DNA of 58,261 bases from a virus. Lineage: Duplodnaviria; Caudoviricetes. Position numbers and translations under genes: made by a program. Location of the stretch: the IMG/VR virus record IMGVR_UViG_3300033141_003435, positions 1-58,261 of that record; one strand, written 5' to 3'. Every line of letters starts with the position of its first letter. Positions within the stretch are counted from its first letter, which is position 1. This document shows positions 4,692 to 49,928 of the stretch, in pieces. The notes beneath the pieces were generated by a model. It did not search any database and had not been told where the DNA came from. It saw only the letters and a list, made by a program, of their open reading frames with translations.

Positions 4692-4986
4692 TCTCTCCTC
4701 CTAACAGCACATGCCAGTGCCAATGAAACTTGATCTGGCGTTGCTCCTTTCTGAATCCGACAAAAGCGTCACCGAATAAGTCGCGACAGATGTCCGTCAC
4801 TTCTTTCTCAACCATCTTCCAAAAGGTGCACGTCGGACAGGTGCACTGCAGATGAGACTTCAGCACAACCATAGGCACTTTGCATGTCAAACAGTCACAC
4901 ACGACATACTTGTCATCCTCGTAGTACCATCGTGTCTTCTTTTCAAGATTGCACAGCGGGCAGTCGCTACTTACAACTCGTTCCAT
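4678..4986 (-). CDS. HIT-like protein
   Basis: From ATG 4986: N-terminal CPLC and C-terminal HWHWH (HxHxH triad). Confidence 0.6.
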   Translation of the reverse strand: MERVVSSDCPLCNLEKKTRWYYEDDKYVVCDCLTCKVPMVVLKSHLQCTCPTCTFWKMVEKEVTDICRDLFGDAFVGFRKEQRQIKFHWHWHVLLGGENARA

Positions 4987-5002
4987 CGAAGCCTTCCGAT
5001 CT

Positions 5003-5914: not shown

Positions 5915-5924
5915 CAGTCATCCT

Positions 5925-6614
5925 TTACTCGTTGATCCATTTTTTCGCTCCTTCTATGATGGCTTTTGCTCTCTCACCTGTAATCTCACCTCTCTCTACC
6001 TTGTCAACGTATCGTGCGACATGCGTTGCGTTCTGAAATTGAGGAACGCCTTGCACGCCACACCACTTCAAAGCTACCCACCAACGGAAGCACGCCGCGC
6101 ACTTCATGCAGCGCCCACTTCTTGAAGAGTAGCATGAGAGCGTTTGCAGAAGTAGTCTATCTGCCTTCTTTCCAAGCTCCCGCTTGAACCATCTTACCGC
6201 ATCGAATTTGCTCCAACCCTGCTCGGCGAAGGGGGCCGCTACTCTAACAAAACGCCCGGCATAACGGGAAATGAAAGAAGTCATATCAGCGTGAGCGACC
6301 CTCGTATTGTCGTTCACACGATCATCAGACACTCCTCCAAGATACACAATGTCAGCATAGCGGCTGGCCCCCATCGCCAACAGCACGTTCCGAAACGGAA
6401 TGTGAGCGTCTGGTAACTCCCAATCTGTAAGCGTGTAGCTAAAGTCAACCTCTGTATTTTTGATAAGCTTCGACACTACTTCCAGCTCTTTGTGCGCGTA
6501 ACGATGTCCCAAGTTAAAATAGAGGGTACGTGGCTTCTTGAGATAGAAATACAGTATGAAGCTGTCCAATCCGCCAGAAAACAACAAAATCTCCGACTTT
6601 TTGCCTCCGACCAT
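5925..6614 (-). CDS. queC: stand-alone QueC-like PP-loop ATPase
   Basis: LLFSGGLDS, IPFRN, SCY..RCMKCAAC Zn motif; start ATG 6614 with GGAGG. Confidence 0.8.
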   Translation of the reverse strand: MVGGKKSEILLFSGGLDSFILYFYLKKPRTLYFNLGHRYAHKELEVVSKLIKNTEVDFSYTLTDWELPDAHIPFRNVLLAMGASRYADIVYLGGVSDDRVNDNTRVAHADMTSFISRYAGRFVRVAAPFAEQGWSKFDAVRWFKRELGKKADRLLLQTLSCYSSRSGRCMKCAACFRWWVALKWCGVQGVPQFQNATHVARYVDKVERGEITGERAKAIIEGAKKWINE

Positions 6615-6647
6615 GTTTCCTCCAAAAATCACCTAATGTCCTCGATC

Positions 6648-6709
6648 CTCCACGAAGTTTTTTATCGCTTAAATATCTAAGTATTAACGCTACCGAAAAC
6701 TTCGTGGAG
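6648..6709. repeat. 14-bp perfect inverted repeat (hairpin) in the leader of queC-like/dpdA
   Basis: CTCCACGAAGTTTT (6648-6661) / AAAACTTCGTGGAG (6696-6709). Confidence 0.85.
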
Positions 6710-6738
6710 AACTGTTCTCACAAGTTAGCATTTTATCG

Positions 6739-6767
6739 TGTAACCTATTTATTTTCAATAGGTTACA
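6739..6767. promoter_or_regulatory. 11-bp inverted repeat overlapping an IHF-like site
   Basis: TGTAACCTATT-N7-AATAGGTTACA; contains TTTCAATAGGTTA, one mismatch to WATCAANNNNTTR. Confidence 0.5.
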
Positions 6768-6795
6768 TAGCCTCCCTCTCGCAAATCGTTTATTT

Positions 6796-8280
6796 TCAAT
6801 CATTTACAAGCCTCTTGAGAATCTCTTGCACCGAGTGTCTGGGCGGACGCATCTTAGATTTCATCCAAGGAGCCACATAGAGCTTCTTGTAGTCTGACGC
6901 GTAACGCGTCGCGTCCGTAACTCCTGCTTTTTCAAACGCCATTCGTCGAAGAGTGCAAGCTCCACAGACTCCACAAGCCTTTCCATCCTTCGGCGCGTTG
7001 TCACAAGAGTAAGTGATGTTGTACGGAACTTCAAGGTAGCTTCCGAGCTGTATGATCTCTGTTTTCATCAATCGTTCGAGGGGCATAACGAGTTTCGGTC
7101 GCATCAGCGTTCCGTAGTCAGAAAGCTCATTGAACTTTTGGAAGAACAGAATGGAGTTGTCTGGATAGCTTCCCTCCTCTTCCAACGTCCAGCCTGCCGT
7201 AATGTACTTCGCTCCCTTCGCTTCAGCGACCGCCATCAGAGAAGCTATCATCACGAGGTTGCGAGCAGGAGTCCAGCAGATCGTAGATTTCAAGTTTTGT
7301 CTCTTAGCTTTGGGCACAGGAAGACTCTTCTCAGTCAACACGCTGTGTCCGAGAGCACCGAGCCACTTCATGTCGAGAAACATGAACTCAACTCCAAGAT
7401 CAACGGCAATGCGCTTAACAGCCCGCCTCTCTCCCTCTTCACTCTTCTGCCCGTGATCAATGTGGCAAAGCACAACGTCTTTATGCCACAACTTCTTACA
7501 TACGTACGCCGCTGTCGTTGAATCTATCCCACCGCTTGAACAAACGAGCACTTTGTCTCCTTGAGCAGGAAGTTGAGAGATGAGCTTTGTCTGTAGCTCC
7601 TGAAATTTGAACTCCCTTTTGTCTACGTCGTACGTGCCACAGGTGTAGGACTCAACCTGTCTCCAGAACGGAAAGGCATGATCTCCGAAGATTGTGCGAA
7701 CAAATCTTTCTTCGCTGAGGATGAAAAACAGTTCGTCTGTTTCGCCGACAACCATAGTTTTGAAGTCTTTGATGAAGTGCAGACACCGCCTCTTAATGTC
7801 GTACAACAAGTAGGCGAAGCCCCCACTACACTCCTTAAAAGCCTTTAACAAGTCTCCAAACTTCTGATAGAGAAGAAACGGGACTTCGCTGTCTATCTCT
7901 GTTATCGGCTCAAGCTTGTGCTGTTTGATCAGCTCTTCGTCATTCGCAACTACACCGTTATGAGAAATGACGTGATAGTCACGAATAATGGGCTGCACAG
8001 ACCTCTCATCAAAGCTTCCCACTTCAGTCAGAGGTTGCGCTCGACAGTTCCAGATAAGAAAGTCTTCGGGCTCAATGCCATTGACAAACTGTCTCCACTC
8101 CGGTGAGGCGAGCACTTTACTCGCGGTTGTGGGACGCTTTAGCGTTTTGATACGACCCGACACCTTGACATCAACAATTCCGAAGGCGTCCTGTCCACGC
8201 TTTTCTGTCTCCAAAACCATGTGCTCAAGGAGACGCCCATCTACCTTTCTGTAAAAGACTGCTCCTCCGATTCCACACAT
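6796..8280 (-). CDS. gat-queC: Gat-QueC (class II glutamine amidotransferase fused to QueC)
   Basis: N-terminal MCGI, RGQDAFG, QP, HNG, DSE (Ntn GATase); C-terminal SSGGIDS, PARN, YPDN, YSC..CGVCGAC (QueC). Confidence 0.92.
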   Translation of the reverse strand: MCGIGGAVFYRKVDGRLLEHMVLETEKRGQDAFGIVDVKVSGRIKTLKRPTTASKVLASPEWRQFVNGIEPEDFLIWNCRAQPLTEVGSFDERSVQPIIRDYHVISHNGVVANDEELIKQHKLEPITEIDSEVPFLLYQKFGDLLKAFKECSGGFAYLLYDIKRRCLHFIKDFKTMVVGETDELFFILSEERFVRTIFGDHAFPFWRQVESYTCGTYDVDKREFKFQELQTKLISQLPAQGDKVLVCSSGGIDSTTAAYVCKKLWHKDVVLCHIDHGQKSEEGERRAVKRIAVDLGVEFMFLDMKWLGALGHSVLTEKSLPVPKAKRQNLKSTICWTPARNLVMIASLMAVAEAKGAKYITAGWTLEEEGSYPDNSILFFQKFNELSDYGTLMRPKLVMPLERLMKTEIIQLGSYLEVPYNITYSCDNAPKDGKACGVCGACTLRRMAFEKAGVTDATRYASDYKKLYVAPWMKSKMRPPRHSVQEILKRLVND

Positions 8281-8282
8281 TT

Positions 8283-9110
8283 CTACTCCCCCACTCGTAG
8301 GTTGACGTACAACTCTACGATCAGTTTAACGACACTGACGACCCACTCCTTTTCAAATGTCTTCTTGGGACAAGTGCTCATTGTGCAAGGGTCGTCAGTG
8401 AGTTTTACGAAAGCCGGACTGTTGGGACGCTTGAAGATTTGTATCGGACTCAGCTTACAAACAAGAGGTGCATCCAGGCACAGCTTCGGGATGTCCTTCT
8501 TTTTGAGAATCGGACATTTGTACAGCACGTCTCCGTTTTCGACTTTGAATTCGTTCTTGGTAAACTCAGGCTTCAACTGGCGGCGCTTACGATACTCAAA
8601 CTCCCCCGGATAAAGAAAGATGAACGGGCGGGAGTTGCAAACACCACATTTCTTGCATTCGCCGATATCCTCAAACTTCCCGCCCATCCAGTAGAGTTCG
8701 TCGTAAATCTTGTCAGTCAGTCTGTCTTTCTCCCTGACTCCACGAATCTTCTCTTGCACCCGCCACTCGACAATCTCTCCAAACTCTCCCAGCGCTTCGC
8801 GCAAATCTGAAGCTAGGCGCTGTACGTCAGTGTCGAATTTGCACGTGTAAACGTCGAAAGAGATGTATCCGTGCTCTGGATAAGTGTGAAAGGAGCAATG
8901 CGAATCGGCAATCAGAAAGACTCCCGAAGCTCCCTGAGGATAGTAGTCCCACTGGGTGTAGTTAAGAATCATCTGTTGGTGCTTCATCAAGAGCTTGGCG
9001 ATGATGTTCTTCAACTGCCCTGTGTTCGCGACAATGCTCGCAGCACGCATGTCCATCCAGCAGTCTACCATCAAATGCTTTGATTTTGGATCGTAAATTT
9101 CCATCGTCAC
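8283..9110 (-). CDS. speD: S-adenosylmethionine decarboxylase fused to a Cys-rich (YkgJ-like) domain
   Basis: KHLMVD, PQGASGVFLIADSHCSFHTYPEHGYISFDVYTC (pyruvoyl SpeD fold); C-terminal CKKCGVC...CP...C...PLVCKLSP. Confidence 0.82.
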   Translation of the reverse strand: MTMEIYDPKSKHLMVDCWMDMRAASIVANTGQLKNIIAKLLMKHQQMILNYTQWDYYPQGASGVFLIADSHCSFHTYPEHGYISFDVYTCKFDTDVQRLASDLREALGEFGEIVEWRVQEKIRGVREKDRLTDKIYDELYWMGGKFEDIGECKKCGVCNSRPFIFLYPGEFEYRKRRQLKPEFTKNEFKVENGDVLYKCPILKKKDIPKLCLDAPLVCKLSPIQIFKRPNSPAFVKLTDDPCTMSTCPKKTFEKEWVVSVVKLIVELYVNLRVGE

Positions 9111-9664
9111 CCCTCGAAATACTTGAAGATGAAAAGCTCCTCAGACGGGTCTTCGTATGTGAGTTTGAAGCCGTCTTCCGCCGCAATGCTGCTAAGAACT
9201 TCTCTCCAAGTGTTGTACGACCACCACGTTATGTGAGACGGATCGTTGTAGAACCACTTGTGCTCGATAGAGCAAAATCCGACGACAACACACATCGACG
9301 AAACTCGAGTGAACTCTTTCATCGTTTTGTAGATGTCCAAAGTCGTGAGATGCTCAAGAAGATCAAACGAGATTGTGCACTCAAACGCGTCATCTCCTCC
9401 GACCATCTCGGAAAGAATGCGCGCATCTCCGAGCTTGATCAACTCTGGGAGCGGACAGCGCTTGACAATCTCTTCGTTGTACTCGACACCTAAGACTGTC
9501 TTCCCCAAACTATGGAGAAGGTGTAGCCCTTCAATGCTTTCGCACGGACAAAAAAGAAAGCTCTTCATGTAGTCAAGCTTGCTTTGATGCTCCTCCCAAA
9601 ACGCTATCTCCGAGCGTCGCAACCCCCCGTATCTTTCATAGTACTTCTTGTCAAAACCAGACAT
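9107..9664 (-). CDS. class I SAM-dependent methyltransferase-fold protein (degenerate motif I)
   Basis: LGVE, GDA, FECTISFDLLEHL, DPSHI motifs. Confidence 0.65.
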   Translation of the reverse strand: MSGFDKKYYERYGGLRRSEIAFWEEHQSKLDYMKSFLFCPCESIEGLHLLHSLGKTVLGVEYNEEIVKRCPLPELIKLGDARILSEMVGGDDAFECTISFDLLEHLTTLDIYKTMKEFTRVSSMCVVVGFCSIEHKWFYNDPSHITWWSYNTWREVLSSIAAEDGFKLTYEDPSEELFIFKYFEG

Positions 9665-9673
9665 CTTCTCCTC

Positions 9674-10687
9674 CTAATCTGAGCGGTGCTGAAAGTAGTC
9701 TTGCACTTTCTTGAGTGCCCGATCGACACCCAAATGTTTGTACTTCTTGTAGACCCACTCCGTCTCGACCTGACAGTTCCAATAGCATCCGTGACACTGC
9801 GCCTTAAAATCGTGCTTCCAGTCTAGGTGTATCCTTCCGAACGGTATCTCTCTGACACTGGCCCACTCGAGAACGTTGTATCGACGAATCTTGTTGCCCC
9901 GAAGGTGCAAACAAGGTCGCAGTGTTCCATCCGCGTCAATCACCAAGTTCGTCATTCCCAAACATCTGTAACGATACTCGTCTGGACAGACGTTGGATGC
10001 AAACTTGAGCAGATACTCTGAGGTGTTGTGGATGAGGTATCCCTCCCTCTTCATTCTCACGAGCCTCTTCATAACAGCGTTCAACGCGTGCCAGTCAGAC
10101 ATACGAAACGCAAACTTGCGATCGTAGAAGCCGAAGTCATAGTCGTGTGACGGATAAGCGATGTAGGGCGTTATTTCCGACCAACAACCCTCCTTTGATA
10201 AGAGCTTGACAAGCATGGTCGCGCCCTTGTAGTTCTCACGATCGAGAGTAAGCGTTGCGTGTAAGTCTTCCACACCCAAACGCTTAGCGACTTCGATCAC
10301 TCTTAGAGCGTTGCTCGTCTTTCGCGCTCTATCTTGACACCCCATGGGATCGGCTGAGAGACTAAGATTCTTCAACCCGCAAGCCTTAAGCTCGCGGATA
10401 TACTGTTCGTCAAGCAGCATCCCGTTTGTCACAATAGCATAGCTTAGGTCACCTAAATGCTTGACGAAACGCTTCAATCGCTTCTTCCCCCAAACAGTTA
10501 CGTCCCCTCCCAGTATGACGATAAACGAGTCGCTGAAGTGTCTCTTCAAAACAGCGATGACCCGATAGACATCCTCCTCGGTAAGCTCATCAAACTGATT
10601 GTCTCGAATACGACAGTACTCGCACCTCAGATTGCACCTCCGCGTCGGTAACCAGGTCACAACGGGTGGTTTTGCAAAGACACTCAT
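9674..10687 (-). CDS. radical SAM protein with SPASM/twitch-like C-terminus
   Basis: CNLRCEYC, ILGGD, IVTNG; C..LVIDADGTLRPC...CHGCYWNC; start ATG 10687 with ATGA overlap. Confidence 0.9.
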   Translation of the reverse strand: MSVFAKPPVVTWLPTRRCNLRCEYCRIRDNQFDELTEEDVYRVIAVLKRHFSDSFIVILGGDVTVWGKKRLKRFVKHLGDLSYAIVTNGMLLDEQYIRELKACGLKNLSLSADPMGCQDRARKTSNALRVIEVAKRLGVEDLHATLTLDRENYKGATMLVKLLSKEGCWSEITPYIAYPSHDYDFGFYDRKFAFRMSDWHALNAVMKRLVRMKREGYLIHNTSEYLLKFASNVCPDEYRYRCLGMTNLVIDADGTLRPCLHLRGNKIRRYNVLEWASVREIPFGRIHLDWKHDFKAQCHGCYWNCQVETEWVYKKYKHLGVDRALKKVQDYFQHRSD

Positions 10688-11391
10688 TGCTCTCCTCCAA
10701 TCCAAAAGAAGCAATCGTAGGTGTCTCTCACAATTATCTCCTTTACACTTCGTCCAAGCTTCTTGCCCAGCACTTCAATGGAGTCTTCGTGAAACATCTG
10801 CACATGTTCGCGGTTGTAAGACATCTCAAGCACATCCCACCTGAAGTCGGGAAACATCGGCACAATCCCGAAGAAGTCTCCATCAAGCGCCTTCCCCAAA
10901 TGCTCAACAAATGCACTCAGATCAATGATGTGCTCAAGCGTATGTGAACAGATAATCACGTCAAATCTTTCCCCAAACTCAGCCCACGCAAAAAGATTCT
11001 CTGAAACATCGATGAGATCGATGCGATGGCTCCGCGCCTCCAGCATATCGTCGTCTGTATAGAAATCGGCGGCGACTAAGTCCCAATTGCGCCGTCTTTC
11101 TCGTATCTGACGAAGCGTATGCTGGGACTTGCCCGCACCGATGTCAAGCACCGCAAACTTGGGACGACGTATGACGTTAAGCCGCTTCAACACCATCTCT
11201 GTGTTCAATCGATTTAGCCATTTGTACACTTCCAACCGCTCTTCTATCCACTTCGCGTCTTCTCCAAGTCTGTAGTCAACTCTCTCGGGGTTGACGTTCC
11301 ATACAAGTTCGCAAGAGAAACACTTACGAAACGCCCCTTCGCGCAAACTCCCCCACGAGTCATCTCCACACAACGGGCAAACGTTTCTCAA
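10684..11391 (-). CDS. class I SAM-dependent methyltransferase with N-terminal Zn finger
   Basis: CPLC..CFSC, VLDIGAG, FDVIICSHTLEHI. Confidence 0.85.
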   Translation of the reverse strand: MRNVCPLCGDDSWGSLREGAFRKCFSCELVWNVNPERVDYRLGEDAKWIEERLEVYKWLNRLNTEMVLKRLNVIRRPKFAVLDIGAGKSQHTLRQIRERRRNWDLVAADFYTDDDMLEARSHRIDLIDVSENLFAWAEFGERFDVIICSHTLEHIIDLSAFVEHLGKALDGDFFGIVPMFPDFRWDVLEMSYNREHVQMFHEDSIEVLGKKLGRSVKEIIVRDTYDCFFWIGGEQ

Positions 11392-11993
11392 TGCTCCGAT
11401 TTTCCTTTCATTTCGACCATAGGAAGCACAAAAGTTTTGGGGCGTTCAAACGCCCCCGCCTTAGCCAGCGTGTCAATGATGATCTTGATGTAAGTTATCG
11501 CTTCCTCCTTCAAATCTTTGTCTCGAAGAAACTCGCCTTGCGCTGAGACTTCGAGTCCGTGTTTCGAGATTCGCACAACATAGCGATCAGGGAGCTTCAG
11601 TACCAACTTGGAATCCTGGAGGCGCTCATTGTGGAGATACGCAAAAATCCACATCTCTTCGCTTGACTTTCGCTCGTGAATAAACAGCCCCCTCCTCTGA
11701 GGGAAGTTGCACGTCGCGTGATCGTCGACGTAAAGGTCAGCTTGAGGTTTGTCAAACTTCAGCTCGTGGTACTTCACACCCCAACTCGCCAGCCACTCCT
11801 TTGTCACCTTCACTACGCCCTTGTCAGAGCTTCGGCGAGATGTAAAGAGTATGATTTTGTGCCCCGCATTATAGAGCGCATTAACAAGAGCGATGTTCTC
11901 TTTGTTTGGAACTCGAGAACGAAACGCTTCGACAGAATGGGTCGGAGGAGCATCACACAGTATTCCGTCAATGTCGACCACGTAGACCATCAC
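11388..11993 (-). CDS. HAD-superfamily phosphatase with C-terminal extension
   Basis: VDIDGIL, ILFTSR, KP.ADLYVDD. Confidence 0.85.
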   Translation of the reverse strand: MMVYVVDIDGILCDAPPTHSVEAFRSRVPNKENIALVNALYNAGHKIILFTSRRSSDKGVVKVTKEWLASWGVKYHELKFDKPQADLYVDDHATCNFPQRRGLFIHERKSSEEMWIFAYLHNERLQDSKLVLKLPDRYVVRISKHGLEVSAQGEFLRDKDLKEEAITYIKIIIDTLAKAGAFERPKTFVLPMVEMKGKSEH

Positions 11994-12940
11994 CTTCCTC
12001 CGATCAAGCGAAGAAACTCCTCTTTGACTTTGTCTTCGAGGAAGTTCCCCTGCATCGCTGAAGTTGTCATGACAGAAGCTTGCTTCTCAACACCTCTAGC
12101 CATCATACAAAGATGCTGAGCTTCGATGACAACTCCGACTCCCATGGGGCGCAACGTTTCTGTAATAGCACTTGCTATCTGTTGTGTAAGTCGCTCCTGT
12201 ATCTGCAGGCGTCTCGCATAGCACTCAACAAGTCTTATCAACTTCGAAATTCCGACAACTTTGTCTTTGGGAAGATAGCCGATATGCACTTTTCCAAAGA
12301 AGGGCATCATGTGATGCTCACACGTTGAGAAGAACTCGATGTTCTTCAGCACTATCATCTGATCATAGTGAAGCGTTTCAGAGAACTGAGCTTGAAGTTT
12401 GACGATGGCAGAGATGTTGTCGCGATACCCACCGAAGAGCTTGCCCCAGCTCTTAACGACTCTTGTCGGCGTATCCTTCAACCCCTCTCTGTTTGGGTCA
12501 TCTCCGATGTACTCGATGATTCGTCGTACGCTATCTTCGATTTCTCTCGGAGACTCCCAGGGAAACACAATCCACTTGCCGCGCGCCACCGTTCTGAGGA
12601 AGATGTCGGGCTTGATCGCCGCTCCTTCCTTCACGTACAACGCCGCCGTCAAAAAGCCCTTCTCAACATACGGACGAATCGTCTCCCCACTATCAACAAT
12701 GTCATCCACAATCACAGTGCGAGAAACATCGGGGGACGAATCAAGCGCCTCTAAAGTTCTCACGATTTCTCGAGCAACGAACCACCCTCCGACAGGAATT
12801 CCGAACACGGTTCGCAGCCCTCTTCGTGCGACTTCAATTGTCAGCTCGTTCCTTAGCTCATCGCAAAGCATTCCCAGCCCTTTCCACGAAAGAGCTATCT
12901 TATCTGCAGTATCTTGTGAAGTTGAAGACTGAGCCTCCAT
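11990..12940 (-). CDS. folE: type I phosphoribosyltransferase (Gpt-like) fused to GTP cyclohydrolase I
   Basis: N-terminal GIPVGG, VIVDDIVDSGET, WIVFPWE; C-terminal REGLKDTP.RV, CEHH, GISKL.R, RLQIQERLT, HLCMMARG. Confidence 0.92.
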   Translation of the reverse strand: MEAQSSTSQDTADKIALSWKGLGMLCDELRNELTIEVARRGLRTVFGIPVGGWFVAREIVRTLEALDSSPDVSRTVIVDDIVDSGETIRPYVEKGFLTAALYVKEGAAIKPDIFLRTVARGKWIVFPWESPREIEDSVRRIIEYIGDDPNREGLKDTPTRVVKSWGKLFGGYRDNISAIVKLQAQFSETLHYDQMIVLKNIEFFSTCEHHMMPFFGKVHIGYLPKDKVVGISKLIRLVECYARRLQIQERLTQQIASAITETLRPMGVGVVIEAQHLCMMARGVEKQASVMTTSAMQGNFLEDKVKEEFLRLIGGR

Positions 12941-13506
12941 CCTTCCCTCCGTTTCACAATTTCAACGCACCTTCTAATCTCGTCTGGGTCATTGTCTTTC
13001 GGCTGAAGGAAAAGATGAAGGCCCTTGTCGGTTGACGCCCTTTCGAACTCCTCCAGCTCGCTATCTGTGTGGTTGTCAAACACCACTTTGACCTCTTTCG
13101 CCAATTGAACGTTGTAAGCCGACCCTCTTTTCGGACTGACCGTAACCCAATCGACATAGCACTCCAACCATCGAGGGGAGTTTGTTCCATTAGTTTCGAC
13201 CGCTATCCACCGCACGCCCCTCTCACGTACGCCGCAAACGAACTGCATCATAAGCTCATCGTCTTGTATCGTCGGCTCCCCTCCGGTCAACACTATGCGC
13301 GGAACACAGTACGACGCGACTTTAGTTATCAACGCACCGACTGTGTATTTCTTTCCTGACTTCCAGGCGTATTTCGTGTCACACCAGGAGCAACGAAGAT
13401 TACATCCAGCGAACCTCACAAACACAACAGGCAACCCCGTCCAAGCTCCCTCTCCTTGTATGGAGTAGAAAACCTCATTTACCTGCAGTTTCTTTGGCTT
13501 TGACAC
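12895..13506 (-). CDS. queE: 7-carboxy-7-deazaguanine synthase
   Basis: EVFYSIQGEG, VFVRFAGCNLRCSWCDT, LTGGEP, VETNG, VTVSPK, WRLSLQLHK; GTG start 13506 with GAGGAG. Confidence 0.95.
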   Translation of the reverse strand: MSKPKKLQVNEVFYSIQGEGAWTGLPVVFVRFAGCNLRCSWCDTKYAWKSGKKYTVGALITKVASYCVPRIVLTGGEPTIQDDELMMQFVCGVRERGVRWIAVETNGTNSPRWLECYVDWVTVSPKRGSAYNVQLAKEVKVVFDNHTDSELEEFERASTDKGLHLFLQPKDNDPDEIRRCVEIVKRREGWRLSLQLHKILQIR

Positions 13507-13909
13507 GTCGTCTCCTCGGCCAGACAATCTTCTGCTCGTTGTACGTACAACTGGCGTTGCTGCTCTCCCACACAGTGACACTCCAAAGCTTGCAAATTTT
13601 CTTTGCCTCAAAAGGAGCTAGAAGCTTTTGCAGCTCCTCGTAAATCCACTTTGAAAGATTCTCTGCAGTCGGATTGAGTCCCTCGGGGAGAATACGATTC
13701 AGATATCCGTGGTCAAGTTGTGACGTTACCTTCGTGATGTAGCGTTTGATGTCTCTGAAGTCGAGTACCATGCCGATCTCTCGCGTTTTGTTGGCGACAA
13801 TAGTCACAGCCACCTTCCATGTATGCCCGTGCAACGCCGCACAAGCTCCATGATAGCCCTCAAGGTGGTGGGCCGCCGCAAAGTCGCTTTCCAAAGTCAA
13901 TGCAAACAT
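13475..13909 (-). CDS. queD: 6-carboxytetrahydropterin synthase
   Basis: FAAAH, C..LHGH, LDF, LDH..LN, PTAEN, V.E; start ATG 13909. Confidence 0.95.
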   Translation of the reverse strand: MFALTLESDFAAAHHLEGYHGACAALHGHTWKVAVTIVANKTREIGMVLDFRDIKRYITKVTSQLDHGYLNRILPEGLNPTAENLSKWIYEELQKLLAPFEAKKICKLWSVTVWESSNASCTYNEQKIVWPRRRRVKAKETAGK

Positions 13910-13919
13910 CTTGCCCTCC

Positions 13920-14132
13920 CTACAGCTCTCGCATCTCTCTGTCCTTACGCTTGTTGACACTGAGTTGCAGAACGCCAGCCACCATCCAAAAGATGAAGGT
14001 GGCTCCAATGCCCGCCAGCGGACACCACCAACGAAGCCCCAAGAGCCACCACAACACCTTGATCGTCGCCAGCAAGCCGAACAGTGTACCGACAAGCGCA
14101 ACCAAAGCAGGAGTTGATTCACCGACTCTCAT
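13920..14132 (-). CDS. small two-TM membrane protein
   Basis: Two hydrophobic segments and a basic tail; ATGA overlap with the upstream gene. Confidence 0.6.
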   Translation of the reverse strand: MRVGESTPALVALVGTLFGLLATIKVLWWLLGLRWWCPLAGIGATFIFWMVAGVLQLSVNKRKDREMREL

Positions 14133-14752
14133 TCCGTCACTTCCTGTATCGTGTAGAGTATCTCGGGGTGTCGCTCCTGAAGTCCCTTGACCAGAGACGC
14201 CACCTCGTCTGAGACAGAAGGCCAGAGGCCAGCCGGAATGCGAATCGTCACTTCGACATTCTGTATGAGTCGCTCCCCTTCCGCCTCTTCTCCCCCTTCT
14301 GCCATCTCTTCGCTCGCAGGAGGTTCGACATCAATCTGTGCCCAGTTTCGACGCTCCTCCAACTCGTCAGGAGTGAAAAGAGTGTCGAGATCAACTTCCT
14401 CCATCTCTTCCAGAGACTTGGCAAGTTGGTATCTCGCCAATTCGTCATACCCGTTGAACTCCGGGATACGATTCGATGCCAGCGAGTACCACTTCGCCTG
14501 CGCCTCCGTCAAATCGCTTCTGTCGATAACAGGCACTTCCGGAAGATTCAGCTTCTGTGCCGCCTTCCATCGAGCGGCCCCGGCAAGAATCACTCCGTCG
14601 CGCCAAACAACAATCGGGTCGATGAACCCAACCTTGGTTATCGACTCACACAGAGCGTCTATGCCCCTCTCTGTGTGGATGCGGCAATTCCAATCAGGCT
14701 CCTTGAGTGAGTCGACAGGAACAACCGCTCTCGATGACGCTGCCTCAACCAT
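14129..14752 (-). CDS. ParB/Srx-domain protein
   Basis: WNCRIH, GFIDPIVV, ILAGAARW, VPVI, LASNR; start ATG 14752 with GGAGG. Confidence 0.85.
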   Translation of the reverse strand: MVEAASSRAVVPVDSLKEPDWNCRIHTERGIDALCESITKVGFIDPIVVWRDGVILAGAARWKAAQKLNLPEVPVIDRSDLTEAQAKWYSLASNRIPEFNGYDELARYQLAKSLEEMEEVDLDTLFTPDELEERRNWAQIDVEPPASEEMAEGGEEAEGERLIQNVEVTIRIPAGLWPSVSDEVASLVKGLQERHPEILYTIQEVTE

Positions 14753-14827
14753 TTCAACCTCCAATTCAAAAATATGTTATCACGAGTCGGATACGCGCCC
14801 GACAACCGTGACAACGACGTTTCAAAA

Positions 14828-15225: not shown

Positions 15226-17385
15226 CTAAAGAAAGTCTGGCTCGTCGTCGGCAAGAAAGTCGTCTTCGTCGTCCAGCTCTCCCGACATTATCGCCTTCAT
15301 AATCTGCATCTCTTCCGTCTCAATTCGCTTGGGACGACTCCGCTTCGTTCCTCCCAACAACCACTCCTTCGTTTCACGCTCAAGCTTCTCCTCCAACGTC
15401 TCGGTGTCTGCGAACTCTCCTAACTGAGGGAGGTCTGCGACCCCAAGATCGAACTGCTTAGTGGCAGCGAAAACGGCGCAAGCAAGAGCGTCGCTCACAT
15501 CCTTCGACCCTCCAGGAGGGTGATCAATCTTCCCTGTCCTCAAATCTCTCTGGAGCGTCCTAAGCTCCTCCATCAAAGGTTTATAAGGATAACATTTCAG
15601 ACGCCCCTCGTAAATACACTCTTTGAGCACCAGGTAAGGGTCCGGCGAACGATCAGCCGACTGGTGTCCGACTACCTCCTGTCCGAAACGCTTACGGAGA
15701 AGTTGTTGCGACTCCCTCGAACCGTACAAGTCGTATGTGATAGAAGAAAAGCGTACTCCGCAAACGTCTCTAAACCGATGGAGTATCTCCCTGATGTACT
15801 CAAACTCGATCTCACCCTCAGAAGGAGGGTTGATTCGCAGCACCAGGTCGACAAACACGATAGGGACAACCTCCATCGTCGCTTCGTAGTCGTCTTCCTC
15901 GGAGCTGGAGACGAACTCTGACTCGTGTCTATGGTGTCCACGTCTGTGATATTTGCGAGGCACCTCTTTGACCTGCCCAACGTGCACGATCGCCACTCCC
16001 GTTGAGTCTCCTGTTGACGAAAGGTCAATGTGTGCACACCTCAAAGCCCCTGGGTGAAGCTTCATTCTCGGAATGTCGAAAGATTTCCCTTCTGGAGGCT
16101 TCTTGATGAGACGATCAAGAATGACAGCATCCAACAGTCTGTCGTACGGAATGCCCTCGGGCCAATTGTCAGAAAGAGGAGAAGGAATTTGAGACGTGAA
16201 CATCGCCACGATTCTTGAGTCGTCGGGGATGAAACGATTCAACGATCTAACGTTCTTCCCCAAAATGTCTCGAATTGCCCCCTCCATATCAACCTCGAAG
16301 TCGCGCTTGTACTCAATCGGGATGGCACAGACCTCTCCACGCTTCTTGTAATTCTCCACCTCTTCAGAGGGAATTTCTTTCGGAGGCGTATGCTGATCAC
16401 CTATAAAAAGGTAGAATTTCCGACCGCTGTATCGTGACTCAGGTTTCGTCTCCCACTCAGAATGCTCGAAAACGACAGTCTCCCTTCCGTCGGCATGTTT
16501 GGAGAGTCGCTCCAGAAAGTCGTCAGGATGTTTGGCTGAAGAATTGAGAATCAACATCCCTGGGACGCGTCCCAAGTTCTGATAACGGGACTTCATCCTC
16601 CTCCAGATGCTGTCATGCAGCTTCTTTGCCTGATCCCACTCACGTTCGGCGGGGTTTGTGATCTTCGAACTCCCCTTGACAACCTGAAAGAAGTTTGCCT
16701 CCTCAATAACGCCTCCGAAGAGGTTCTCCCCAAGAGGAGCCAGTTCGGAAGAAGACCCCGGCACAATGCTGACCATCTTCTGCGGAAAGTCGATGATGGA
16801 CTGGATGTACTTGTTCCTCGGAAAGTCCTTCTGGAAATAAGGACTCTCGTCGATCATATCTTTAATCAATTTGAAGAGGACACGTTGGGCGTGCTGGGCT
16901 GAAACAGAGAGATTCATGAAACTGATCTGAGTCATCGGGGCCAGCCCGAAGTAGGCTTGGGGAGACTTCAAGCAGCTCAGCTCGTAAGCCATGTAAGAAA
17001 TCAACAACGCAGAAAGCCACGTCTTGCCCCAACCGATAGAGCCTTTAAGGATGACCCTCATCGGACGGGGATCGACCAGTACTACACGGTAGAAGTTGTC
17101 TTTGACCCCAGGATAGGTGCGCTGCCCTACAGCTCCAAAATAGTAGGGGTCGTTCAGCCACCGTACAGGATCGACAGGTTCACGCTCATACTTATTCTCG
17201 AACCACTCTTCGTACAACTCTCGGATGCTGAGGCCGCACTTAGCTGCTACTTCATGCAAATAGCGCTCCGCCTCTATCCCGAACTCTTCCATCGAAGGCG
17301 GCGACGATAGGCGCTTCTCACGACCCACTGTACACACCTCCCGATAAGACGCCCAACCCTCCCATGAAAGAAGGACAACTTCCAC
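15226..17385 (-). CDS. terL: terminase large subunit
   Basis: Walker A ILKGSIGWGKT, Walker B GGVIEE, coupling motif ILNSS, nuclease AHIDLS and DHPPGGSKDVSDA; true start may be ATG 17292. Confidence 0.9.
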   Translation of the reverse strand: MEVVLLSWEGWASYREVCTVGREKRLSSPPSMEEFGIEAERYLHEVAAKCGLSIRELYEEWFENKYEREPVDPVRWLNDPYYFGAVGQRTYPGVKDNFYRVVLVDPRPMRVILKGSIGWGKTWLSALLISYMAYELSCLKSPQAYFGLAPMTQISFMNLSVSAQHAQRVLFKLIKDMIDESPYFQKDFPRNKYIQSIIDFPQKMVSIVPGSSSELAPLGENLFGGVIEEANFFQVVKGSSKITNPAEREWDQAKKLHDSIWRRMKSRYQNLGRVPGMLILNSSAKHPDDFLERLSKHADGRETVVFEHSEWETKPESRYSGRKFYLFIGDQHTPPKEIPSEEVENYKKRGEVCAIPIEYKRDFEVDMEGAIRDILGKNVRSLNRFIPDDSRIVAMFTSQIPSPLSDNWPEGIPYDRLLDAVILDRLIKKPPEGKSFDIPRMKLHPGALRCAHIDLSSTGDSTGVAIVHVGQVKEVPRKYHRRGHHRHESEFVSSSEEDDYEATMEVVPIVFVDLVLRINPPSEGEIEFEYIREILHRFRDVCGVRFSSITYDLYGSRESQQLLRKRFGQEVVGHQSADRSPDPYLVLKECIYEGRLKCYPYKPLMEELRTLQRDLRTGKIDHPPGGSKDVSDALACAVFAATKQFDLGVADLPQLGEFADTETLEEKLERETKEWLLGGTKRSRPKRIETEEMQIMKAIMSGELDDEDDFLADDEPDFL

Positions 17386-17399
17386 TTCCCTTCCCTACA

Positions 17400-20330
17400 G
17401 TAACAACAACAGCAGTAGGAAGACCGTTCTTTGCCCTCTGTAGGGCTTCATGAACAGCCTCTGCTACTGAAGAACAAATGTTTGAAATCTGAAATATTTG
17501 TGTAGTCTTCCCAGTAGAAGCAGCACGGACTCCGTACAACGAAGCAGTCAGAAAAAGCAGACACGCACGAAAAAATCGACACGCGCGAAAAAATCGACAC
17601 GACGTGATGAGGGAATAACTAGACGCCCTTAACTCGTTACGCAGATGTTTTTTATGCGAATCGACACCATAACGCTCATGAGAACTCTGCTCTAGTATGA
17701 CAGAGTTGCCCTTCGCTACATGTGCTCTCACTACTCTCATGTGAGTAGACGTTAAAAGCCACCCAAGAACACCCTCGTACAACGTCAAGCATACTGTCAG
17801 AAGTCTCTCAGAAGACTCCCGTACGTAATGCCGGAGACACCTCATCTGCCTTCCCAATAGAGTGTCCATACCTATATCCTTACCTATATCCATACTACAG
17901 CCCACCGTACAACGCAGTAAGTGCCTCCTTCCGACAATACGCTCTATAAGACTATGGTCGTTCTCGACGCTCGCGTGTAGCGTGCTCGCTCGTTTCAGCG
18001 TGCTCATCTGGCAGGCCCGACGAAAACGAAGACGTGATATACGGCGTACAACGTAACTCGCGTATATACGTCTAATATATACACGTGTTATTCTCGCTAC
18101 TTCCAACACCAGAAACAACGCAAGAGTCTTCACGAGAGTCTTCACAAAGTCGTGCAGTGAGCACACACGTCCCTGCGCACGTGTATAGCGAGAACTTGTG
18201 CCCTCACTCCTCTCGCGAGTAACGAGAGCGCTCGCTTCTCTCGAGAGCATAGCGAGTTCTCGTGTATAGCGAGAACATGGGAGTATAGCGAGGTCGTACG
18301 GGTTTAGCGAGAACTTGTGAGTGTAGCGAGAACTTGTGTGTGTAGCGAGAACATGCGAGAAAAGCGAGAACTTGTGAGCATTGTGACAACGTGCGTTGTC
18401 TCTACATACGTGTGTAGCGAGAACATGCGAGAAAAGCGAGAACTTGTGAGCATTGTGACAACGCACGTTGTCTCTACATACGTGTGTAGCGAGAACATGC
18501 GAGAAAAGCGAGAACTTGTGAGCATTGTGACAACGCACGTTGTCACAATGCTCACAAGTAGCGAGATCAAGCGATTTTAGCGAGTCCATACGACTCTCAC
18601 TACTCTCACGAGTAACGAGCGCACTCGCATCTCTCACGTGTGTCATAGCGAGAACTTGTGCCCTCGCTACACTCACGTGTATAGCGTGCTCGAGAGCATA
18701 GCGAGAGCACTCACTCTCACTCCACCCTTGTGTGACATAGCGATCACACAAGTCCTCGCTCCTCTCGTGTGTAGCGAGAACATGAGAGTTTAGCGAGGTC
18801 ATGCGTGTTTGGTGACAACGCTCGGTGTCACTCCTCTCGTACGTAGCGAGAGCAAGCGAGTTCGGTGTCTCCTGAAGTAGTGGCGACACCGAACTCGTGA
18901 GCGGAGCGAGAACATGCGTGTACAGCGAAAGCCCATGTAGAATACGGCCCCAAATCGCTGCTTCATACGCGCTCACTCCACTCACGAGTGCCAAAGCGAG
19001 ATCACGTGGCGCTCGCAACCCTCGTGAGTAGCGTGCGCTGGCGCTTCTCTCGCTAAAATCGCTTGATCTTGCTACATGTGCGTGTAGCGCGTGCTCTCGT
19101 GTATGATGAGCGCACACGGCTCGCACAAGTGACATAGCGACAACGAGCGTTGCTTCTGAGTGGAGCGCTCTCGCGTGTAGCGAGAGCACGCGATACTTGT
19201 GCGTGTTGCGAGCACATGTGCGTGTAGCGAGCACTCTTGCTGCTCTTGTGTGACATAGCGAGATCGCTCGGTGCACACACGCGTCGTATAGCGAGATCAC
19301 TCGTTGCTCTCGACACTTGTGTGTCAAAGCGTCAACATGCGACTGAGAGCGTCTCCACAAGTTGCTCTCAGGCCCGATCTTAGCGAGTCCATTCATCATG
19401 TCCGACTCACGTGTGTCATTGCGTGCACACATGTCACGCTTGTGTGTCAAAGCGTCAACGTGCGTTTGTAGCGACAACGAGCGCTGCCTCGTGAGTCGTG
19501 TAGCGAGGGCACTCGCATCTCTCACGTGTCGTATAGCGAGATCACTCGTTGCTCTCAGCACTTGTGAGTGATTGCGACAACGCACGTTGCCCACAAGCGC
19601 CATCTTAGCGAGTCCATTCATCATTCTCGGCTCACGTGTGTCATTGCGTGCTCGCTCGTCATGTTGTGTAACTCAGCGCTCACATGCGCGTGTGACGAGA
19701 GCGCACGAAGCGATCGACTAACTCAGCGCTCACGCACGTCGTGCTGGGCAACTCAGCGCGCTCGCGGGCTGCGTTGAGTAACTCAGCGCTCACATGCGCA
19801 GCAGCATATGCGTGATAGCGACGGCGCACGGAGACTTTTGTGAGAGACGGGCACGTCAACACAAGGGCGTCGCGTACAGCCACGAGGGTCTTCACGCTCT
19901 CTGTCACAGAAGTCTCCACGCACAACTTGCGCGCTCACCACTCACAAGGGCGTCGCGAACTCTCACTAGGGTCTCCACGCTCTCTATCACAGGAGCATCG
20001 TGCGCAATTTCGTGCGCAAAATGCGTCGTCGTACGTCGCGCAGATGACGTGCCCTTTTGTCGTCGGTGTCGACGTGCCTTGACTGACATGGCTCGACAAA
20101 CATTGTCGAGTGCGTTTGCGTGCAGATAAACGTCCCCGTTTCTCACACGATTCTCACGCGATTCCTCCCTCTTTTTCTCGCACAATTTCTCACGCTTTTT
20201 CTCACGCGTTTTTCTGCGCTTTTCCTCACACAATTTCTCGCGCAATCCTGCTCGTGATTTTCGCACGTTTTCTCTCCCATTTTTCACGCGTTTTTCATCG
20301 CCCTATTTCTCGTGCTTTTCACCCGATCAT
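17400..20330. repeat. repeat-dense block between terS and terL (candidate packaging/terminus region)
   Basis: Many same-strand TAGCGAG motifs, 19-bp and 72-bp periodicities, duplicated 20-50 bp blocks, AACTCAGCGC x4, phased T-tracts. Confidence 0.85.
18338..18559. repeat. 72-bp tandem repeat x~3 ending in a 22-bp-arm perfect hairpin
   Basis: Units start at 18338, 18410 and 18482; ACTTGTGAGCATTGTGACAACG-CA-CGTTGTCACAATGCTCACAAGT at 18514-18559. Confidence 0.9.
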
Positions 20331-22638: not shown

Positions 22639-22874
22639 TTGTCTAAACGCTCCAAGTCTCTCGTAATGCGTTTCGCAATTCTGATCGCCTTCTCTGCCGG
22701 AATGACGTTGTACTCCGTAGCCTTCAGCACCCTGTCAATACCCCGTACTTTGATCAGCGGAACCCTTTCTCCACTGTCGCTTGTTCCGATAGCCACAACC
22801 TTGCCCCACCCAAGACAACAAGCTCGCTTATCGTCCCAAACTTGGACCTTCTCTCCCAGTTTAAGTTTGCTCAT
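22635..22874 (-). CDS. hypothetical beta-rich small protein
   Basis: From ATG 22874 (GGAGG RBS): LKLGEKVQVWD..LGWGKVV, resembling 40836-41060. Confidence 0.6.
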   Translation of the reverse strand: MSKLKLGEKVQVWDDKRACCLGWGKVVAIGTSDSGERVPLIKVRGIDRVLKATEYNVIPAEKAIRIAKRITRDLERLDK

Positions 22875-23763
22875 TTGCACCTCCAACACTCTTCTGCTTA
22901 CGATGACGAAGCAGATTCTCCAGAACGCCCTCAAGCGTCACTTTCTCCATGTGCGTCAATGCCCAAACTAGCTCCAAAGGAGTTGTCACTACCCCAAAAT
23001 GCTCCTTGAGACTTTGCTGCAGACTCTGAAGCGCACTAGCCAGACGTATCACGCTTCTCCTCCTATAATTTGCTCCAAGCCCGGCGTTACGCATCCGTTG
23101 CGCCAGAGTCTGCACCGAAATCCCAAGTTGCTTCGCAACCCTCTTCTTGTCGTAGTGTCTTGTTTGAAGCAGCATCAAAAGATGTGCTCTCTTCGCCATT
23201 CGCTCTGCTTTCTGATAGGCGCCCTTCCCTCTTCGAACGAAGTCTATCAACCCAAGCTCTTCCGTCAATTGTCGTACACGCTCCCTAGACAACTTCAACT
23301 TCTGCCCCGCTTTACTGTAGTTGAAAAGCGAAGAAGACAGAACTTTCCGAAGCATCTCCCTCCTTGTACGACGAATCACCTCTGAACGTGTGCCATAAAG
23401 CTGACGAAGCACTACATCTCGATGTACGAAGATACGAAGTGTGTCATATGACACACCAATCCTCTCTGCAATCCCATGAAGTGTGCTGCTTGACTTCACC
23501 AACTCTTGGGCAATCAAATCCCAATGTCGTTCACACTTCACCATTGCCCTTGCTCGTCTCATACTTGTCTTACGTTCTCTCGCTCTATACGCGTGAGCCG
23601 CCTCTTGATTCTGCCAAATCCAGTAATACAACGAGTTGATTGACGCTCCTGGACTCCCAAAACGTCGTACAATCTTTTCCAGAGTTACGCCCTCTTTCAA
23701 AGCCCGTACGACAGCCTCACGATGACGATCGTACGCAAGACTGCTAGTTCGTCTTCTCCCCAC
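22861..23763 (-). CDS. multi-HTH transcriptional regulator
   Basis: Several HTHs: TLHGIAERIGVSYDTL, SKAGQKLKLSRERVRQL (sigma region 4-like), KKRVAKQLGISVQTL (Fis-like). Confidence 0.75.
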   Translation of the reverse strand: MGRRRTSSLAYDRHREAVVRALKEGVTLEKIVRRFGSPGASINSLYYWIWQNQEAAHAYRARERKTSMRRARAMVKCERHWDLIAQELVKSSSTLHGIAERIGVSYDTLRIFVHRDVVLRQLYGTRSEVIRRTRREMLRKVLSSSLFNYSKAGQKLKLSRERVRQLTEELGLIDFVRRGKGAYQKAERMAKRAHLLMLLQTRHYDKKRVAKQLGISVQTLAQRMRNAGLGANYRRRSVIRLASALQSLQQSLKEHFGVVTTPLELVWALTHMEKVTLEGVLENLLRHRKQKSVGGANEQT

Positions 23764-49607: not shown

Positions 49608-49678
49608 GTAAATTTTTTGTTTTCAACAACTTAGCTCTCTCTCTCTCTGCGCACTCGACATTTGGAGCTCGCGGTCAA

Positions 49679-49928
49679 CAAGTTCAAGCCGTAAGCTTTG
49701 CAAGTTCAAGCCGTAAGCTTTGCGAGTGCAAGCCGTAAGCTTTGCAAGTTCAAGCCGTAAGCTTTGCAAGTTACAAAACCGCATTTTGCAGAACGAGGCC
49801 ATAAGAGCGACAACGTGCGTCGTAAGCTTTGCAAGTTCAAGCCGTAAGCTTTGCAAGTTCAAGTCGTAAGCTTTGCGAGTGCAAGCCGTAAGCTTTGCAA
49901 GTTCAAGCCGTAAGCTTTGCAAGTTCAA
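49679..49928. repeat. two blocks of four 22-bp tandem repeats (iteron-like)
   Basis: Unit CAAGTTCAAGCCGTAAGCTTTG at 49679/701/723/745 and 49832/854/876/898; the third unit of each block is the variant CGAGTGCAAG. Confidence 0.92.

Follow-up and report, generated by a model that had tools for sequence, protein, structure and literature searches.

The window analysed here is the full IMG/VR record IMGVR_UViG_3300033141_003435 of a virus of the Caudoviricetes (58,261 bases, classed as linear and approximately 50% complete), and our subject is the 2.9-kb region that separates its genes for the small and the large terminase subunit (terS and terL). The convincing genes of the window all lie on the minus strand, and its GC skew is negative along the entire length; in the order of transcription, several orphan genes are followed by terS, then by the 2.9-kb region and then by terL. 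Two features are superimposed in this region: an array of short sites (consensus WAGCGAGNNC), nearly all of them on the plus strand, and a minus-strand open reading frame (ORF) of 768 codons, henceforth ORF768, which crosses the whole array without a stop codon. The original prediction, made from the letters alone, had described a polarised array of TAGCGAG sites between terS and terL. This location was borne out by the functional assignment of the two flanking genes (see Table 1), but the region is not plain intergenic DNA, and the frame that spans it had gone unnoticed. We consider it very probable that both layers, i.e., the platform of motif sites and the stop-free frame, exist.

The site array and its repeats

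Motif counts were compared with a background of 100 dinucleotide-preserving shuffles of the window. The heptamer WAGCGAG, which covers the predicted TAGCGAG and AAGCGAG, was found 46 times in the window against 22.6 ± 5.5 times in the shuffles, and 0 of the 100 shuffles reached 46. Thirty-three of the 46 matches fall within 18093–19612, with 29 on the plus strand and 4 on the minus strand, meaning that the predicted run of further copies to about 19610, nearly all on one strand, was recovered; the other 13 are scattered over approximately 56.7 kb (3 on the plus strand and 10 on the minus strand). Alignment of the sites gave about 2 bits for each position of AGCGAG (1.8–2.1), 1.4 bits for the W and 1.84 bits for a near-invariant C at position +9, with weaker flanks. 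This C is present in 29 out of 29 plus-strand sites of the array as opposed to 1 out of 13 WAGCGAG matches outside it. When the motif was counted across the genome in its extended form, WAGCGAGNNC, the stretch from 18080 to 19700 held 31 copies (29 on the plus strand, 2 on the minus strand) and the other 56.6 kb only 1.

Six sites had been predicted to follow each other in exact 19-bp steps (18267, 18286, 18305, 18324, 18343 and 18362), and all six are where they were said to be; Tandem Repeats Finder (TRF) likewise reported a period of 19 in 5.7 copies at 18264–18371. Such phasing is a local property, however, and does not extend to the array as a whole: 9 of the 28 successive plus-strand spacings are 19 bp, 5 are 53 bp (19 + 53 = 72) and the remainder are irregular.

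The six tandem 19-mers were also compared column by column, in a register that was fixed by position and hence independent of the motif. The 7 columns of the core contained 1 change in 42 cells, whereas the other 12 columns contained 16 in 72 (Fisher p = 0.005). Relative to the overlying frame, the sites fall into every codon phase (15, 4 and 10 of the 29), so protein-level selection cannot account for the conservation of the core; the motif core is under nucleotide-level selection. Given that the core is selected as a nucleic acid, a multi-site binding platform, as originally proposed, is a fair reading of the array.

Alternating purine-pyrimidine runs of at least 8 nt make up 20% of the array (18150–19650) and 2% of the remaining window. 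Such alternation is prone to slippage and to the formation of Z-DNA, and the composition that results also explains why the conceptual ORF768 protein is rich in His, Cys, Thr, Arg and Val. The array resembles CRISPR arrays in having short repeats at regular spacing, but whereas the latter have repeats of 23–55 bp separated by unique spacers of similar length, the units here are 19 and 72 bp long, the 9–12-nt spacers resemble one another, there are no unique ones of about 30 nt and no cas genes were present among the ORFs scanned. The original view that this is not a CRISPR array was thus correct. We also considered and rejected a T7-type promoter reading of the minus-strand core, which recalls such promoters, since the scanned ORFs included no single-subunit RNA polymerase and promoters spaced 19 nt apart would make no sense.

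The repeats and hairpins that had been reported alongside the array were all present. The 72-bp triple repeat was detected in 2.9 copies with 98% matches, each unit containing two motif sites 19 bp apart and a 16-nt palindrome with a 4-nt loop. The three palindromes (18385–18400, 18457–18472 and 18529–18544) differ in that the loop is flipped among copies (GTGC vs. GCAC), which is the signature of template switching at a hairpin in the course of replication. The predicted hairpin with 22-nt arms is perfect, and on the minus strand it gives a terminator-like match of 20 pairs followed by a T-rich stretch. The duplicated blocks were recovered as a pair of 102-nt sequences, both of which carry the ATGATG start context of ORF768, in frame and 225 nt apart. 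Finally, the four copies of AACTCAGCGC between 19670 and 19790 (at 19670, 19720, 19750 and 19780) all lie on the plus strand and occur nowhere else in the window.

The region folds very strongly. The segment 18500–19100 reached −307.9 kcal/mol on the minus strand against −218 ± 6.7 in shuffles (z = −13.4), and 200-nt windows across 18400–19200 had z between −3 and −7. The plus strand of the same segment reached −290.8 kcal/mol, and in two further segments the strands compared at −158.5 vs. −179.3 and −229.4 vs. −237.2 kcal/mol. Because both strands fold about equally well, the self-complementarity is best understood as near-perfect inverted repeats in the DNA. A search of Rfam 15 returned no family at the gathering score and only 8 hits to microRNA models (20–32 bits vs. 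gathering scores of 45–100). The strong folding on which the structured-RNA alternative of the original prediction would draw is thus real, but its likeness on the two strands and the lack of an Rfam family at threshold mean that fold strength is no evidence for a specific RNA; an RNA role is neither shown nor excluded. The lowest GC content in 60-nt windows of the region was 0.33 (17450–17509), followed by 0.38–0.40 at 18020–18109, which adjoins the array. The DnaA box TTWTNCACA has no match in the region and two in the window, at 27176 and 55777.

The open frame across the array

Over the full length of ORF768, the three minus-strand frames contain 0, 42 and 35 stop codons and the three plus-strand frames 33, 26 and 29. 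The absence of stops is uniform: each 288-nt window had 0 in the ORF768 frame and 3–18 summed over the other two minus-strand frames. It also persisted when repeat copies were masked (0, 38 and 28 stops; P = 2.4e-12). The frame is packed against its downstream neighbour, with its TGA overlapping the likely GTG start of terL, which is preceded by GGAGG eight bases upstream. A programmed frameshift that would fuse ORF768 to terL was considered and set aside, as reading of the overlap, no scan having been run, revealed no slippery heptamer. In a sister record (see below), the ORF768 frame is open across 1036 nt (0, 28 and 11 stops in the three minus-strand frames) despite a 69-nt insertion, whose length is a multiple of three. 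Three of the four single-nucleotide polymorphisms (SNPs) in the shared part are synonymous third-position changes, a count too small to carry much weight.

Other properties of ORF768 are not those expected of a protein gene. Its codon-usage log-ratio was −0.029, whereas 35 out of the 36 other minus-strand ORFs outside the training set scored between +0.012 and +0.204 (stop codons were excluded from the score, which was based on 21–22 training genes with a leave-one-out range of +0.029 to +0.175). The sole exception among these 36 held-out ORFs is the one that covers a second array, described below. Repeat pairs that are in frame with each other differ at 33, 32 and 38 first, second and third codon positions, respectively, an even spread that gives no sign of constraint on the amino acids, and other repeat copies within ORF768 are mutually out of frame (e.g., a 245-nt duplication). 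The protein had no match in Pfam or PHROGs. Using words from its first 500 residues, we found no homologue of similar length among 5.8 billion cluster representatives, and a HMMER search with its last 276 amino acids found no match among 1.84 billion representatives. AlphaFold2 in single-sequence mode gave a predicted local distance difference test score (pLDDT) of 37 and the ESM Atlas model one of 0.35, single-sequence folds being weak evidence in any case. The ESM Atlas stores the ORF768 protein letter for letter, with no feature match and with structure rows at a template modelling (TM) score of at most 0.26 by query. The frame also passes through both the perfect hairpin and the 528-nt domain that lies next to it. 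To summarise these comparisons, ORF768 is a long frame packed onto terL that has neither genome-like codon usage nor detectable homologues or a confident fold, and despite its open frame it does not behave like a protein gene.

The whole-window TRF run detected only one other tandem array, which consists of 22-nt units and lies between the genes for a primase (50017–50883) and a helicase (47169–49541). Here, too, a single frame is open across the repeats (ORF 49623–50033, minus strand), and its codon score is −0.075; this ORF and ORF768 are the only 2 of 38 minus-strand ORFs with a negative score. The junction between standard 22-nt units, CTTGAAC, contains a TGA that is read in one phase out of three. 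In each third unit the junction is changed to CTTGCAC, so that the TGA is missing precisely at the points where it would have interrupted the open frame; the 8 TGAs that come from standard units all fall in the other two frames. Both arrays thus show the same pattern, in that their period is not a multiple of three and yet one open frame crosses each of them. From its sequence and position, the 22-nt array is a candidate iteron-type origin.

Table 1. Positions of the main features of the terS–terL region, its flanking genes and the second array.
Feature	Position	Strand	Evidence or remark
terL (large terminase)	15226–17385	−	phrog_2; likely start GTG 17328
ORF768, stop-free frame (768 codons) that spans the whole array and runs up to the terL start	17318–19624	−	stops 0 vs. 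42, 35
Four GTTGTACG copies in the non-array tail of ORF768	17533–18052	−	read in three different codon phases
12-nt repeat tract, strain-variable	18123–18145	−	sister record +69 nt, in frame
Polar WAGCGAGNNC array (1.4 kb), 29 sites on the plus strand	18186–19615	+	pattern count and site alignment
Tandem 19-bp run	18250–18380	+	TRF; six exact 19-bp steps from 18267, preceded by a 17-bp unit
72-bp repeat	18338–18544	+	TRF; 2.9 copies, 98% matches
Perfect hairpin, 22-nt arms	18514–18559		arms 18514–18535 and 18538–18559, 100% complementary
Hairpin-filled domain closed by a 32-nt inverted repeat	18553–19080		arms 18553–18584 and 19049–19080, 94% complementary; 528 nt
Duplicated 102-nt blocks	19335–19661		19335–19436 and 19560–19661, 77% identical
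Untranslated gap	19625–19903	−	all 8 stops of the otherwise open frame; four AACTCAGCGC copies
ORF127, basic, low-complexity	19904–20287	−	ORF list; 12-nt-period array at 20151–20258
terS (small terminase), 201 aa	20327–20932	−	phrog_6299 "terminase small subunit", E 2.2e-12
22-nt array, 11.4 copies, arranged as two blocks with about five units each	49679–49928	− (ORF 49623–50033)	whole-window TRF

Related genomes and the readings of the locus

The sister record (L006/G001) is 99.56% identical to the window over 10.9 kb, and the left 207 nt of the array are the same in it base for base. It comprises 37.3 kb and continues approximately 19 kb past the left end of the window; all 8 of its WAGCGAGNNC sites lie within its first 167 nt, i.e., in the array. 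The record stops at window position 18352, on the edge of the 98%-identical 72-bp repeat, a place at which assemblies break in any case. For the right two-thirds of the array (18352–19650) we therefore depend on one short-read-type assembly, in which the number of 72-bp units could be wrong.

More distant relatives were identified through the terminases. A tblastn search with terL matched 357 phage records, all below 60% identity; among the 30 matches listed, identity was about 33% and many carried a large-terminase annotation, the nearest cultured phages (~33%) including Vibrio SIO-2-like phages, Rhodobacter RcZahn and Stenotrophomonas DLP5. In the last two, the gene order is a ParB-like gene, a small ORF and terL, and the stretch covered has no repeat region, either annotated or left as a gap. 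A TerL profile had no relative in 185,579 species genomes. Ten viral loci were found in which TerS is 36–39% and TerL 46–55% identical to the proteins of the window. The gap between terS and terL in these loci is 0, 0.6, 2.6, 2.9, 3.8 or 4.7 kb, and it is filled with ordinary ORFs (ParB_N, radical SAM, vWA and unknowns); in L012 and L013, the TerS relatives are encoded immediately upstream of terL. A scan of metagenomes for TerL yielded 6 loci, only one of them close (L019; 70% identity), with ordinary Cys-rich ORFs upstream of its terL. The most frequent 7-mer per 1.5 kb occurred at most 7 times in every other fetched locus and 22 times here. As a side observation, one relative (L016) has a TerL of 1057 amino acids (11241–14414) that contains an intein with an HNH endonuclease domain (Intein_splicing E 1e-28, HNH_3 E 3e-9).

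In distant mode, blastn of 17400–20300 against 50,697 phage records had no match, and a strict two-site pattern recovered only the sister record from viral contigs. Looser two-site patterns, searched in viral contigs and genomes, gave at least 120 matches each, among which the multi-copy loci were unrelated simple coding or tandem repeats. Nor did the titles and abstract openings listed in our literature searches describe an array this large between terS and terL. Since relatives carry nothing or ordinary genes in the terS–terL slot, we take the slot to be a cargo site and the array to be lineage-specific; that it is a conserved pac architecture of the family, as the earlier idea of a TerS pac or terminus region might suggest, was not shown, given that phages with related TerS and TerL do without it. 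Because it is lineage-specific and its copy number differs between near-identical strains, the element evolves quickly.

We tentatively favour, at clearly less than even confidence, an explanation in two layers: a putative platform in the DNA for the binding of a protein, probably in the service of packaging, and a pass-through frame that overlies it. The first layer would be a lineage-specific platform of at least 31 asymmetric 10-bp WAGCGAGNNC sites, 29 of them co-oriented and intermixed with palindromes and short repeats, which may have grown by tandem duplication of 19-bp and 72-bp units while its core stayed constant and its spacers drifted. Its most likely reader would be a sequence-specific phage DNA-binding protein, and its role would be the recognition and orientation of DNA for packaging, either by TerS itself or by a helper, for which one candidate is a protein with four helix-turn-helix (HTH) stretches encoded at 22861–23763. 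Among the roles we considered, packaging appears the most likely because the platform lies between terS and terL and its polarity runs along the direction from terS to terL; moreover, as the 22-nt array occupies the place where an origin would be expected, packaging is the natural neighbourhood function for the terS–terL array. Even so, we regard service in packaging as a possible rather than a probable role of the DNA layer.

The second layer of this explanation concerns the frame. The platform sits inside a long string of minus-strand genes, and selection would keep the 768-codon frame free of stops up to the start of terL, the peptide itself being apparently unimportant. Its purpose may be to carry ribosomes over 2.3 kb of hairpin-rich transcript into terL, by translational coupling and by protection from premature termination, including that at the terminator-like 22-bp hairpin. 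That pass-through frames thread cis-acting DNA arrays in this phage as a rule, stop-free for the crossing of ribosomes and with an irrelevant peptide, is a possibility that we put forward with some doubt.

Among known systems, the array would seem to work most like a pac-type recognition region. In SPP1, pac is reported to comprise three sets of direct repeats that span the promoters and the start of terS and overlap coding sequence (PMC4737164). The points in common with the pac regions of SPP1 and SF6 are cis-acting short direct repeats beside the terminase genes, an overlap with coding sequence and an HTH small terminase as the proposed reader.

Several observations weigh against the explanation in two layers. 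Known pac sites are compact (about 100–300 bp with few repeats) and usually lie in or upstream of terS. The array here adjoins the terminase genes, but it extends over 1.4 kb, comprises at least 31 sites, lies downstream of terS and is absent from relatives, which sets it apart from the pac of SPP1; because it fails on size, position and conservation among related terminases, we did not file it as a pac site. No array was seen in any of the ten loci with related TerS and TerL, nor in L019 with its 70% identical TerL. The 19-bp spacing applies to just 9 of 28 intervals and may be a mere footprint of duplication, and the same SPP1 source gives the distance between neighbouring HTH motifs of TerS rings as about one turn of DNA, with which a step of 19 bp does not agree (PMC4737164). 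With regard to the frame, no Shine-Dalgarno-like sequence precedes the first ATG of ORF768 whereas most other genes have one, and the frame passes through the perfect 22-bp hairpin; both points make efficient translation less likely. Elsewhere, on an unmeasured reading of the ORF list, there seem to be untranslated gaps several hundred nt in length, so that a ban on untranslated RNA is not a general rule in the window. Lastly, the two blocks of the 22-nt array may go back to one duplication, in which case the pattern of its variant units may be a single event.

Other explanations can be offered for the same observations. ORF768 could be a genuine, fast-evolving and repeat-rich orphan protein (an accessory or cargo gene), with the array as a by-product of slippage that has no DNA-binding role. 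Its frame is open beyond chance (P = 2.4e-12) and ends at the start of terL, the insertion that separates the two strains preserves it, 3 of the 4 SNPs leave the amino acid unchanged, a gene caller yielded exactly this ORF (as the ESM Atlas entry attests), and the same slot holds ordinary cargo genes in relatives. We nevertheless consider it unlikely, given that the core is conserved across three codon phases while the spacers drift, that the codon usage falls outside the range of 35 out of 36 other ORFs and that in-frame copies diverge evenly over the codon positions (33, 32 and 38). Furthermore, periods of 19 nt and an out-of-frame duplication of 245 nt give no repeat at the protein level, and neither a homologue of similar length among 5.8 billion representatives, nor one for the C-terminal 276 amino acids among 1.84 billion, nor a confident fold (pLDDT 37 and 0.35) was obtained. 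The region might also be a functionless, self-expanding satellite in a variable slot, with selection acting only on an open frame that spares terL expression. Unrelated repeat families (periods 11, 12, 18, 19, 24, 72 and 83) crowd the same 2.9 kb, copy number differs between strains, relatives lack the array, and slippage-prone purine-pyrimidine runs account for 20% of it as opposed to 2% elsewhere, all of which would suit a satellite. However, neutral satellites homogenise whole units, whereas here the core and the C at +9 are constant (the latter in 29/29 sites vs. 1/13 outside) and the spacers diverge. As phage genomes, in addition, seldom retain 2.9 kb of ballast, we find a satellite improbable.

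If the sites do act as DNA, their partner may not be the terminase but a host factor, or they may act during the transit of DNA. Conceivable variants are a polar, Chi-like attenuator of a host exonuclease (entering from an end to the right of the array), a sponge for a DNA-binding or defence protein of the host and a T5-iss-like pause of injection. The strict polarity (29 to 2) and a short asymmetric core with three G, which on the plus strand would face an enzyme coming from the terS side, are compatible with such an element. Known Chi sites, on the other hand, which the RecBCD or AddAB of the host recognises and which are over-represented and skewed in its genome, have 5–8 nt, and the conservation here extends over at least 10 positions, and outside the array the motif is neither enriched nor co-oriented (13 WAGCGAG, 10 of them on the other strand). 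The T5 iss region belongs to the terminal repeat and is untranslated, with 97 stop codons in its 1662 bp; it contains DnaA boxes, and T5-like phages share it in conserved order (bioRxiv 10.1101/866236). Its crowded anatomy of repeats and palindromes is similar, but the array here is free of stops in one frame, lies between terminase genes, has no DnaA boxes and is specific to its lineage, the open frame and the absence from relatives arguing in particular against the T5-like variant. Overall, we judge an element for a host factor or for DNA transit to be as unlikely as an orphan protein. The element could also act on the minus-strand transcript, as a structured leader or attenuator that governs read-through from terS to terL or as some 29 CUCGCUA sites for an RNA-binding protein. 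This would agree with the motif lying almost solely on the transcribed sense, with the very strong folding (z = −13.4; −3 to −7 in 200-nt windows), with the terminator-like hairpin of 20 pairs and its T-rich tail on the minus strand, and perhaps with an open frame through that hairpin, which would fit a translation-controlled read-through. Since the two strands fold alike, what is seen are near-perfect Watson-Crick repeats with no strand-specific G-U signal, and Rfam returned no family at threshold beyond the 8 weak microRNA-model hits; we rank an RNA element slightly below the orphan protein and the element for a host factor or DNA transit, and slightly above the satellite.

A replication origin or a copy-control iteron field for a putative initiator is brought to mind by the tandem 19-bp units (5.7 copies) and by the AT-richer patch (GC 0.38–0.40 at 18020–18109) that adjoins the array. 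Iterons of 19 bp are known from the lambda origin (inside gene O), P1 and F, and the lambda origin is likewise a cis-acting array within an open frame whose peptide is poorly constrained there. Iteron arrays of this kind have 4–14 copies that are conserved over most of the unit, and they lie beside an initiator gene and an AT-rich unwinding element. Here, tandem repeats within the iteron range of 17–22 bp do occur, but there are about 31 sites with only some 10 of 19 positions conserved, no DnaA box matches in the region, and the neighbours are terS and terL, with no initiator gene nearby and the replication genes at 29–51 kb. An origin role is made less likely still by the 22-nt array (11.4 copies) between primase and helicase, which is the better candidate; we therefore hold it to be quite improbable. 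Least probable of all, and very much so, is a centromere-like loading site for one of three ParB-domain proteins, which the original prediction had listed as a parS-like array. Three ParB_N proteins are indeed encoded within 15 kb, plasmid centromeres can be arrays of short direct repeats, and those of R1 or pSK41 (parC) and of F (sopC) similarly consist of head-to-tail short sites that a small DNA-binding protein coats cooperatively. But the site is asymmetric and not a palindromic parS of about 16 bp, the ParB proteins (208–239 aa) have no match to an HTH family, two of them have CxxC pairs and follow a DpdA-like gene, and no ParA-like protein was matched among the 57 ORFs scanned against PHROGs. 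We identified no centromere-binding protein; the phage, which encodes its own replisome, appears to be lytic, and this half of its genome contains neither an integrase nor a partition ATPase. RcZahn and DLP5 also have a ParB-like gene next to the terminase genes, yet the stretch covered shows no repeat region, whether annotated or as a gap.

Should pass-through frames indeed thread the arrays of this phage as a rule, they would represent a general way for a phage to place large DNA-level elements in operons without polarity, and some of the long orphan "proteins" in viral catalogues would functionally not be proteins. If the array serves as the recognition site for packaging, it would surpass all pac-type elements described so far in size and repetitiveness by a wide margin, and it would be a clean natural substrate for studying how polarity is recognised by a small terminase. 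The stop-free but non-gene-like frame that overlies the motif array offers a testable case of selection for translation as such. It bears on how phages escape polarity across long cis-acting regions and on how orphan ORFs in viral metagenomes are read, ORF768 already being present as a 768-aa "protein" in a public structure atlas.

Neighbouring genes and further repeats

Transcription of the window starts with a replication and recombination module (ligase, primase, helicases, DNA polymerase, UvsX/UvsY-like proteins, SSB, RusA and SbcCD-like proteins), and downstream of terL a ParB-domain gene is followed by the 7-deazaguanine pathway, by two further ParB-domain genes and by the portal gene. 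Near terS, a sigma-70-like promoter match was found at 20972–20944. ORF127, which directly precedes the untranslated gap, has a codon-usage score at the low end of real genes (+0.048), no Pfam match and no counterpart in related loci; its surroundings contain one direct-repeat pair spaced 83 nt apart (19860–19912 and 19943–19995).

The 300-aa protein with four HTH-like stretches, which were picked by eye from the sequence and lie about 50–60 residues apart, is encoded on the minus strand and has weak matches to Sigma70_r4, HTH_8, HTH_23 and HTH_28. On this basis it is a candidate reader of head-to-tail DNA repeats. Like several of its neighbours, it is without a counterpart in the related terS–terL loci, and sequence searches of the PDB with it and with TerS returned nothing usable.

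All three ParB-domain proteins are short and contain a GxxRxxA box. Their features suggest helpers of the 7-deazaguanine DNA-modification genes more than they do centromere binders, and the two that end in CxxC pairs directly after the DpdA-like gene may help its product. The modification set itself is large (3466–14764) and consists of FolE with a longer N-terminus, QueD, QueE, a Gat-QueC-like protein, a second QueC-like protein and a DpdA-like protein, accompanied by genes for a second radical SAM protein, a methyltransferase-like protein and a SAM-decarboxylase-like protein.

Two further repeated sequences were observed in the window. The replication half (28.7–56.8 kb) contains 5–6 copies of a conserved promoter-like block of about 45 nt, which is centred on TTATAATA and followed by a stretch resembling a ribosome-binding site. 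These blocks lie on the minus strand at 56805, 43974, 36943, 29706 and 28787, with a partial copy at 49585 and none in 0–28 kb, a distribution which suggests that they are early or middle promoters and that the packaging and structural half is transcribed by a different mode. The word GTTGTACG occurs 18 times in the window against an expected 1.12 ± 0.99, with 14 of the 18 copies on the minus strand, while the wider word GTYGTAC is enriched across the genome and nearly strand-symmetric (37 copies on the minus strand and 34 on the plus strand); it could be tied to the 7-deazaguanine modification or to the site of a nuclease or methylase.

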